64,000 nt of DNA from a virus (lineage: Duplodnaviria > Heunggongvirae > Uroviricota > Caudoviricetes). Shown in pieces: positions 3,508 to 4,521 of the stretch. The stretch lies in the IMG/VR virus record IMGVR_UViG_3300045988_145635. One strand, 5' to 3'. Within the stretch, counting starts at the first letter, position 1, and each line of letters starts with the position of its first letter. The position numbers and the translations under genes were made by a program. The notes under the pieces are model-generated. The model worked only from the letters and a program-made list of their open reading frames with translations. It did no database searches and was not told the origin of the DNA.

Positions 3508-3705
3508 ATGAACTGGTTTTCAAATCACTTTGGAAAAACTTGGCTGGCGATTCTGGCTTTCATAGCTCTCATGGCCGCCGGTTGGGTATCGAACATTGTA
3601 AAACTCGTTTGCTCTGGTGATCTCCAGTTTCAGGCTGGTATGACCTTGGCTCGTGTTGTTGGGATTTTTGTTTTTCCAGTCGGTTCGGTACTTGGTTATT
3701 TCTGA
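3508..3705 (+). CDS. Small membrane protein (2 predicted TM segments)
   Basis: 65 aa, hydrophobic stretches LAILAFIALMAAGWV and VVGIFVFPVGSVLGYF. Confidence 0.4.
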   Translation: MNWFSNHFGKTWLAILAFIALMAAGWVSNIVKLVCSGDLQFQAGMTLARVVGIFVFPVGSVLGYF

Positions 3706-3798
3706 CGGTTGTTAGTGCATATGCATTGACCGTCTTTTCGTAAGCAATTCATGTAACTAGAAAACAACTTGTTTTAACAAATAACAAAAGGAAAGCAC

Positions 3799-4224
3799 AT
3801 GTTAGGTTTATTCAAAAAGAAAACTCGTAAAGCTGTTATCGAGGTCAAAAAAATGGAGAACCGAGATGCGGTTGAAGCCACCGTGTGGGGCGCGTACATG
3901 ATCTCCTATGCCGATGGCACATGCGACGCAAAGGAAATTTCCATTCTTGAGAAAACAATTGCAGCTCTGCCTGCGTTTTCTCCGTTTGCTGGTGAGATTG
4001 CCCAAATGAGCGCCAATATCCGTGCTCAATACGAAGCCTCACCGCGCCGCGCTAATGCCCAGGCTTTACGTGAGCTGGCTGATGTGGCCGGGACTAATGA
4101 TGCAGTAGATGTACTGTGTCTGTGCCTTGATATTGCCGACCAAGACGGTATTGGCGAACAAGAAGAGCTGGCCCTGAAAAAGATCGCACAGGCGCTTCAG
4201 TTGTCACTGGATGCTTATCTCTAA
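3799..4224 (+). CDS. TerB-like domain protein
   Basis: Two DG-x-x-D/E-x-x-E-x-x-x-L segments (YADGTCDAKEISILEKTIAAL; DIADQDGIGEQEELALKKIAQAL) as in TerB-family proteins; operator motif A upstream. Confidence 0.55.
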   Translation: MLGLFKKKTRKAVIEVKKMENRDAVEATVWGAYMISYADGTCDAKEISILEKTIAALPAFSPFAGEIAQMSANIRAQYEASPRRANAQALRELADVAGTNDAVDVLCLCLDIADQDGIGEQEELALKKIAQALQLSLDAYL

Positions 4225-4382
4225 TGCTTGAGAGATTCCGGCTTGTGACCGTCATTGCTCTTCTGGTGATGGCGGTGTTGGTGGATTTTACGGGAAAGAT
4301 GATGTCTGTCATTTCTGATGGCGTCCTCATTGGTCTGGCGATCTACTTCGCTTATCCGCTAGTCCGTAAAGCAACGTGTTAA
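4224..4382 (+). CDS. Small hydrophobic protein (52 aa), translationally coupled to TerB-like gene
   Basis: ATG overlaps the TAA of the upstream gene (TAATG); MLERFRLVTVIALLVMAVLV... two hydrophobic segments; below the ORF-track length cutoff. Confidence 0.4.
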   Translation: MLERFRLVTVIALLVMAVLVDFTGKMMSVISDGVLIGLAIYFAYPLVRKATC

Positions 4383-4521
4383 TGACAAGGGCCAAATGGC
4401 CCTTGTGTTTCGTTGACCGAAATAGAGAGTTTGCACCTTTACGTTTAGCTTGCTCCCCTTTTATGCCACATCACAATAAAGCCAATAAGAAAACAACTTG
4501 TTTAAGCATTAGGAAAAACAC

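Follow-up and report, generated by a model that had tools for sequence, protein, structure and literature searches.

What does a phage gain from a TerB-family gene that runs, across overlapping stop and start codons, into a gene for a 52-aa hydrophobic peptide? The question is raised by a 64,000-nucleotide stretch of viral DNA (Caudoviricetes; hereafter the window, meaning the whole stretch that was analysed), in which a preliminary description had seen a standalone TerB protein coupled to a small membrane peptide, plausibly a sensor and effector for abortive infection or exclusion. Both open reading frames are present on the plus strand, and the TAATG overlap reported for them is there as well: the TAA stop of the first gene and the ATG of the second share one base in the context ctcTAATGctt (Table 1).

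The gene pair and its identity

The two genes almost certainly represent the tciA-tciB module, which was named first in phage P1; its carrier here is a Cyrano/SSU5-like E. coli phage-plasmid. The surrounding 2.2 kb are 95-96% identical to four E. coli phages of ~108 kb (Cyrano, PhiR41_1 and two CMS-2020a phages), and in Cyrano (96% identical) the products are annotated as 'P1 TciA-like protein' and 'P1 TciB-like protein'. The 584-bp segment comprising both genes is found with 100% identity on the E. coli plasmid NZ_CP020118.1 (111 kb), where RefSeq calls them 'tellurite resistance TerB family protein' and 'DUF3927 family protein'. Altogether, the segment is present in 215 of 5426 complete E. 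coli genomes (~4%), and 215 of its 219 places in E. coli are plasmid-borne, with plasmid sizes of ~110 kb among the matches listed. Furthermore, a TciA homologue is encoded on 789 plasmids in PLSDB, 771 of which are classified as non-mobilizable, as fits phage-plasmids. The pair is already known, being named in the P1 annotation and annotated in near-identical records, and as a discovery it is of little weight. What is new here is that the near-obligate pairing of TerB with DUF3927, the overlap and the selection acting on both genes are quantified, and that a testable hypothesis of a TerB protein with a micro membrane partner can be put forward for a two-gene module which is spread over P1-like, SSU5-like, lambdoid, N4-like and jumbo phages and has carried the label 'tellurite resistance' for two decades.

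The known counterparts, tciA-tciB(-tciC) of P1, terB-upf69.4 of P7 and orf8-orf7 of D6, consist of the same two families in the same order and with a start/stop overlap, as in the window. P1 TciA has 141 aa like its counterpart in the window and is 85% identical to it over residues 1-123; P1 tciB (54 aa) overlaps tciA, and the TciB of the window is 37% identical to TciB of both P1 and P7 (tblastn). In both P1 and the window, the carrier is an enterobacterial (Enterobacteriaceae) phage-plasmid. However, P1 additionally possesses tciC, encoding a 35-aa peptide with a single transmembrane segment, and flanking tRNA genes, whereas the window has neither. Indeed, no tciC-like hydrophobic ORF follows tciB in the window, where a hairpin begins 3 nt past the stop codon instead. 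As tciC is absent from D6 and other relatives as well, it is not universal in the module. Note that tciAB adjoins tRNA genes in many phages (the P1, P7, D6, JLK-2012, ChrisDB and phiK7B1 loci were compared); no tRNA genes were found in the window, so this association does not apply here. A place beside tRNA genes is typical of accessory 'moron' cargo genes.

Sequence signals around the pair

In P1 the pair is part of the ban operon, whereas in the window it is equipped with a promoter/operator-like motif and a hairpin of its own. Judged from these signals, tciAB looks like a small transcription unit of its own, in which an operator-like palindrome and a Shine-Dalgarno sequence precede the two genes and a hairpin follows them (Table 1). 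The predicted hairpin, with a stem of 9 bp that includes six G-C pairs, would close the two-gene unit.

Table 1. Positions of tciAB, its sequence signals and the copies of the palindrome in the window.
Feature	Position	Strand	Remarks
tciA	3799-4224	+	141-aa cytoplasmic TerB-family protein, homologue of P1 TciA
tciB	4224-4382	+	52-aa hydrophobic peptide MLERFRLVTVIALLVMAVLVDFTGKMMSVISDGVLIGLAIYFAYPLVRKATC, DUF3927 / PHROG 1470, homologue of P1 TciB
TAA stop of tciA	4222-4224	+	shares one base with the start of tciB
ATG start of tciB	4224-4226	+	
Shine-Dalgarno-like sequence	3788-3795	+	AAGGAAAG before the ATG of tciA, read from sequence
Palindrome at tciA	3762-3774	.	AAACAACTTGTTT, candidate operator/promoter-associated element, 25 nt 5' of the tciA start
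Terminator-like hairpin	4385-4414	+	ACAAGGGCC-AAAT-GGCCCTTGT followed by GTTTCGTT; consensus-pattern match only
All copies of the palindrome AAACAAnTTGTTT	3762-3774, 4491-4503, 9032, 17144, 17195, 18635, 19830, 20315, 21219, 21982, 32736, 32761, 61939		
Upstream ORF	3508-3705	+	65 aa, just 5' of tciA
Upstream hairpin	3711-3730		between the upstream ORF and tciA

The palindrome AAACAAnTTGTTT is over-represented in the window, with ~13 sites (27 strand matches compared to 3.1 expected, a count reached in none of 100 shuffles). Most copies are located ~5-10 nt 3' of an ATAAT-like -10 box and 15-40 nt 5' of a gene start. Furthermore, the palindrome is kept 5' of tciA in Klebsiella phage pJN2-26 despite diverged flanks. 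It looks like a phage repressor operator or an early-promoter element shared within the phage-plasmid lineage.

The ORF directly upstream of tciA encodes a peptide with two hydrophobic segments that belongs to PHROG 6006 (unknown function) and has a sub-threshold match to a Pfam holin family (E=0.036); another hairpin separates it from tciA.

TciA belongs to the TerB family

For comparison we used a set of 16 diverse TciA-bearing phages, among them P1, P7, D6, the SSU5-like pJN2-26, the lambdoid phages Fostie, Evi and JLK-2012, the N4-like phages UTK0002 and TR2, the jumbo Erwinia phage ChrisDB, the Pseudomonas phages phiK7B1, AF and PMBT3, Pantoea phage LIET2 and Vibrio phage BUCT194. TciA of the window matches the Pfam family TerB (PF05099) with residues 33-136 (E=1.2e-6; 29.3 bits, cut-off 24.4) and PHROG 632 'tellurite resistance' over its full length (E=2.8e-62), and the Pfam family is matched by all 16 homologues of the set. 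A profile of these 16 sequences found the structure of the Klebsiella pneumoniae ter-operon TerB (2JXU; E=4.6e-17), with profile positions 11-137 aligned to chain residues 17-145. The lone TciA sequence gave nothing meaningful against PDB sequences; the family profile is needed to reach 2JXU. The AlphaFold2 model of TciA consists of six helices (pLDDT 88.3, pTM 0.84), and its best Foldseek match is 2H5N (probability 1.0). Residues D23, D39, E46, D95, G117 and E122 are invariant in the 16 homologues, and two acidic ADG...E motifs can be aligned to their counterparts in 2JXU. TciA is homologous to TerB over its full length and has a six-helix TerB-like fold, and the assignment made in the preliminary description is correct in this respect. 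Note that tblastn of TciA on plasmids (E<=1e-3) does not reach terB of ter operons. TciA is therefore a diverged phage branch of the TerB family, and any analogy to the TerB-TerC couple holds at the level of profile homology only.

Three cysteines (C42, C107 and C109, in the sequences ADGTC and VLCLCLD) are invariant in the TciA clade of the window, not in the wider family, and may form a clade-specific thiol or metal site.

The database names would suggest a case of lysogenic conversion, in which the pair makes the lysogen truly resistant to tellurite or metals. The solid membership in the TerB family and the invariant cysteines of the clade are in line with this proposal. However, the other ter genes required for resistance are absent, an argument that was also made for phages PMBT3 and D6: the papers on PMBT3 and on D6-like phages note the genes and say that they should be tested or that they probably do not confer tellurite resistance. 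Indeed, no terC, terD/E, terZ or terA was found within ~6 kb of the pair in the Cyrano annotation, and the flanking ORFs in the window gave no Ter matches in Pfam and PHROG, so that the word 'standalone' was well chosen for this TerB gene. The terZABCDE(F) operon, which is associated with tellurite resistance, phage inhibition and colicin resistance, resembles tciAB in that a TerB protein is encoded beside a membrane protein (the TerC-TerB complex), but TerC, TerD, TerZ, TerA and TerE are all missing from the window, TciB is unrelated to TerC, and the operon resides on a conjugative plasmid or genomic island rather than on a phage. As the pair also occurs in virulent phages and in lytic operons, a resistance function is very improbable.

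TciB, a conserved hydrophobic peptide

TciB matches the Pfam family DUF3927 (PF13064; E=1.9e-12; 47.4 bits, cut-off 25), its residues 4-51 covering positions 3-50 of the 53 profile positions, as well as PHROG 1470 'TciB-like' (E=7.8e-21). The two-segment hydrophobic character attributed to it earlier is evident from a GRAVY value of 1.32 and from hydrophobic stretches at residues ~7-20 and 34-47, which flank the polar sequence DFTGKMMSVISDG; basic residues are present at both ends. The AlphaFold2 model is one continuous helix from residue 2 to 51 and not a hairpin (pLDDT 90.8). In an alignment of 13 phage peptides P45 is invariant, D21, S28, D32 and G33 are near-invariant, and the conserved motif VDFT..MS..SDG...P is present in the peptide of the window.

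In Pfam and PHROG, TciB matches no holin or toxin family; besides DUF3927, only a sub-threshold match to DUF2177 appeared. An exhaustive phmmer search with TciB found 16 representatives only, and since all of them are 25-87 aa long, there are no informative domain fusions; a word-indexed homologue search retrieved close relatives only. Nevertheless, tciB is not a chance ORF, because its homologues trail TerB genes in very different phages, because 12 of the 13 peptides aligned belong to DUF3927, and because its dN/dS is ~0.37.

One 196-aa 'fusion' of TciA and TciB (P0094; a single assembly, P1-type allele) was considered and dismissed, as its in-frame junction seems to go back to a one-base indel where the stop and start codons overlap. 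The ORF is probably an artefact of assembly or mutation and provides no evidence of an interaction between TciA and TciB.

Pairing, overlap and selection

A TciB-like hydrophobic ORF of 46-59 aa directly follows tciA in 13 of the 16 phages, and the peptides form one alignable family. For a broader view, TciB was used as a seed in IMG/VR and GTDB genomes, yielding 94 loci, 91 of them with sufficient upstream DNA. A TciA ORF ends at the TciB start in 89 of these 91; both exceptions are partial TciB matches, one of them (L028) a truncated half-tciB after a Q gene. Conversely, TciB is found downstream in 73 of 74 loci seeded from two other TciA clades, and in the only exception tciA is broken and tciB is still there. 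The pairing is essentially obligate in both directions.

The overlap itself is just as regular. Among 114 distinct tciA-tciB sequences, it amounts to 4 nt in 69 and to 1 nt in 42 (111 of 114 together), the other three having a 2-nt gap (two sequences) or an 8-nt overlap (one). Pairwise dN/dS is ~0.06 for tciA and ~0.37 for tciB. By these sequence measures, both are under purifying selection and are real genes, evidently coupled in translation. The constant adjacency, order and overlap of 1 or 4 nt imply co-translation and a matched dosage of the two proteins.

Three phages of the set differ. Pseudomonas phage AF has an unannotated ORF of 73 aa (L014, 1932-2153) that overlaps the terB stop and encodes one N-terminal transmembrane segment; it may be a non-homologous replacement of TciB. 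In Vibrio phage BUCT194 (virulent, N4-like; L010, 1-2177), terB, terC and a second, tciA-like terB follow each other consecutively. A DUF3927 peptide is lacking there, and the ORF after the second terB (83 aa) is not hydrophobic. In Pseudomonas phage PMBT3, no small membrane ORF was found beside the TerB gene.

The alleles of the two genes are not inherited strictly together. P1 (L002, 3001-3590) is a mosaic of a tciA of the window type and a tciB near-identical to that of P7 and D6, and tciA of P7 (L003, 1501-2099) and D6 is only ~35% identical to tciA of the window. Thus, recombination shuffles alleles between tciA and tciB, and any interface of the two proteins would have to be generic, or would be absent. 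A co-variation of the TciA C-terminus with the TciB type, which the stop of the tblastn alignment at residue 123 had seemed to indicate, was rejected, as the C-termini are similar and P1 mixes the types.

Some IMG/VR contigs (L064-L071, L070 and L083; ~2268-2641) carry an N-terminally truncated tciA (~39-74 aa, PHROG 9865) together with an intact tciB. The short tciA could be a product of decay or an alternative short form.

Genomic context and time of expression

In every context examined, tciAB belongs to a phage or a prophage; among the phages are strictly virulent ones of the N4-like and jumbo types. The five chromosomal loci that were checked all proved to be prophages, with a Q antiterminator, an endolysin, a CII-like regulator or Bet/RecT as hallmarks. 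Within these genomes, the pair occupies characteristic places. In lambdoid phages, it sits between the Q antiterminator and the lysis cassette; in P1, it belongs to the C1-controlled (C1-repressed) ban operon; and in N4-like phages (Schitoviridae), it is found among early or middle genes. The Q-to-lysis interval is the classic lambdoid site of accessory 'moron' cargo genes. The positions in the ban operon and downstream of Q imply expression in lytic growth and not in the lysogen, and the presence in virulent phages, together with the lytic-phase transcription units, argues that tciAB works during the phage's own infection. In line with this, the tci genes were detected in a transcriptome study of P1vir infection.

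The lambdoid location next to the holin and endolysin genes also invites the explanation that TciB is a holin- or antiholin-like protein that sets the time of lysis and is modulated by TciA; the size and the two-segment hydrophobic layout of TciB are indeed those of small holins. However, the pair lies away from lysis genes in P1, in N4-like and jumbo phages and in the window, the same interval serves as a cargo site, no holin family is matched by TciB, and a knock-down in P1 caused no plating defect (PMC10695390). A role in lysis timing is therefore improbable.

The expression context also bears on the sensor-effector pair proposed in the preliminary description. Its structural part, a TerB protein coupled to a hydrophobic peptide, stands; its functional part, abortive infection or exclusion, is without direct support. 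An abortive-infection or toxin pair would mean that TciB depolarizes the membrane and that TciA, as a TerB sensor, restrains or triggers it, thereby protecting lysogens from other phages. In favour of such a pair, the peptide combines a small size with strong hydrophobicity, the two genes map to a hypervariable region of P1-like phage-plasmids, phage inhibition is a phenotype of the ter operon, and TerB domains are part of validated defence systems, one of which, Dionysus, combines a TerB-like protein with a pore-former. Yet strictly virulent phages form no lysogens to be protected, and a C1-repressed operon (P1) or a location downstream of Q (lambdoid phages) should leave the genes silent in those that exist. 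Moreover, neither TciA nor TciB matched any defence model of PADLOC-DB v2 at E<=1, and TciB has no similarity to known Pfam toxin families. This explanation is not supported and appears quite unlikely, whereas superinfection exclusion during the phage's own infection is possible.

Possible function of TciAB

A survey of the literature turned up no experiment on the function of tciA or tciB. In a CRISPRi screen of P1, all three tci genes were non-essential (PMC10695390), and tciABC, one of eight hypervariable regions in phage-plasmids of the P1 type, is lacking in about half the members of one subgroup (PMC9603915). Because the genes are non-essential in this screen and lost in about half of this P1-like subgroup, tciAB would be an accessory 'moron' function that is dispensable for plaque formation.

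In the ter system, the TerC-TerB couple is reported to form the central complex (Turkovicova 2016, as cited in PMC11003894), and TerB has been described as amphitropic (bioRxiv 10.1101/2025.09.30.679545). By analogy, TciB is probably the membrane partner of the cytoplasmic TciA. The obligate pairing, the translational coupling, the hydrophobicity of TciB and the TerB-TerC precedent all argue for this partnership, and so do the outliers described above, as TciB is substituted by TerC in BUCT194 and by another small transmembrane ORF in AF. TciB would reside in the inner membrane, its two basic termini probably facing the cytoplasm, and would partner or anchor TciA, as the integral membrane protein TerC does for TerB. 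Translational coupling would ensure that the two are made in fixed proportion, and their complex would target the inner membrane of infected cells in the phage's own lytic development. Taken as a whole, this is the best explanation that we can offer, and we give it a probability of about one half. The allele mix of P1, the single-helix model of TciB, the TerB gene of PMBT3 with no small membrane ORF beside it, and the failure of tblastn to reach the TerB of ter operons were counted against it.

The consequence for the cell is a more tentative matter, since it is deduced from Ter phenotypes and the expression context only. Membrane protection or exclusion is conceivable: the membrane might be shielded from pore-forming insults or from superinfecting phage, possibly in combination with a block of cell division, and this outcome, which resembles the Ter phenotypes after which the genes are named, would be the most probable one of TciAB activity.

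A block of host cell division during lytic growth has also to be considered as a function of its own, as it is implied by the 'i' of tci and would parallel the filamentation associated with ter genes. In the P1 annotation the genes carry the entry 'inhibition of cell division (by homology)', and their operon also contains a dicF-like region. Furthermore, a study of the P1vir transcriptome grouped tciA/B/C with icd and kilA, and in Yersinia pestis a link between the ter operon and filamentous growth has been reported (PMC4633105). However, the annotation relies on analogy only, and the searches revealed no resemblance to known division inhibitors. Division inhibition as the principal task of the pair appears doubtful at best.

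That TerB domains recur in defence, as the preliminary description had remarked, is borne out by the systems Shango, Bunzi and Dionysus, for which an 'amphitropic' membrane surveillance has been proposed; in Dionysus, a TerB-like protein is paired with a pore-forming membrane protein (bioRxiv 10.1101/2025.09.30.679545). The corresponding proteins (SngA in Shango, BnzA in Bunzi, DinB with the pore-forming DinC in Dionysus) combine a TerB-like domain with membrane-associated components, as in tciAB. In contrast to tciAB, which is phage-encoded, these systems are host-encoded, consist of three genes, contain ATPase/helicase or MAEBL components and have larger membrane proteins.

A further candidate is a counter-defence decoy, in which the phage TerB protein would mimic or titrate TerB-based membrane surveillance of the host (Shango, Bunzi, Dionysus) or block pore-forming abortive-infection effectors. 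In several defence systems TerB is the putative sensor; moreover, virulent phages carry the pair, it is found in early or lytic operons, and it is hypervariable and often exchanged among phages. However, TciA is under strong purifying selection (dN/dS 0.06) and does not show the diversification of an arms race, and no supporting literature was found; a decoy is very unlikely.

A broader, though still unlikely, variant regards tciAB as a minimal phage-borne 'Ter' system that guards or re-sets the inner membrane of the host, or acts as a decoy for Shango, Bunzi and Dionysus. Here a TerB protein docked on a DUF3927 micro-membrane-protein would serve at least six lineages of phages, temperate as well as virulent ones, during infection, and might stop colicins, superinfecting phage or abortive-infection effectors that form pores. 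If so, a widespread counter-defence or exclusion module would be found under the label 'tellurite resistance'.

Returning to TciB as a membrane partner of TciA, the tciAB pair might shed light on the role of the TerB domain in defence systems. A combination of membrane attachment and TerB-like domain also occurs in the host. The chaperone cofactor DjlA unites a transmembrane helix, a TerB-like domain and a J domain in one polypeptide. No J domain was found in TciA or TciB (Pfam). DjlA thus holds its TerB-like domain at the inner membrane in cis, whereas tciAB would do so in trans.
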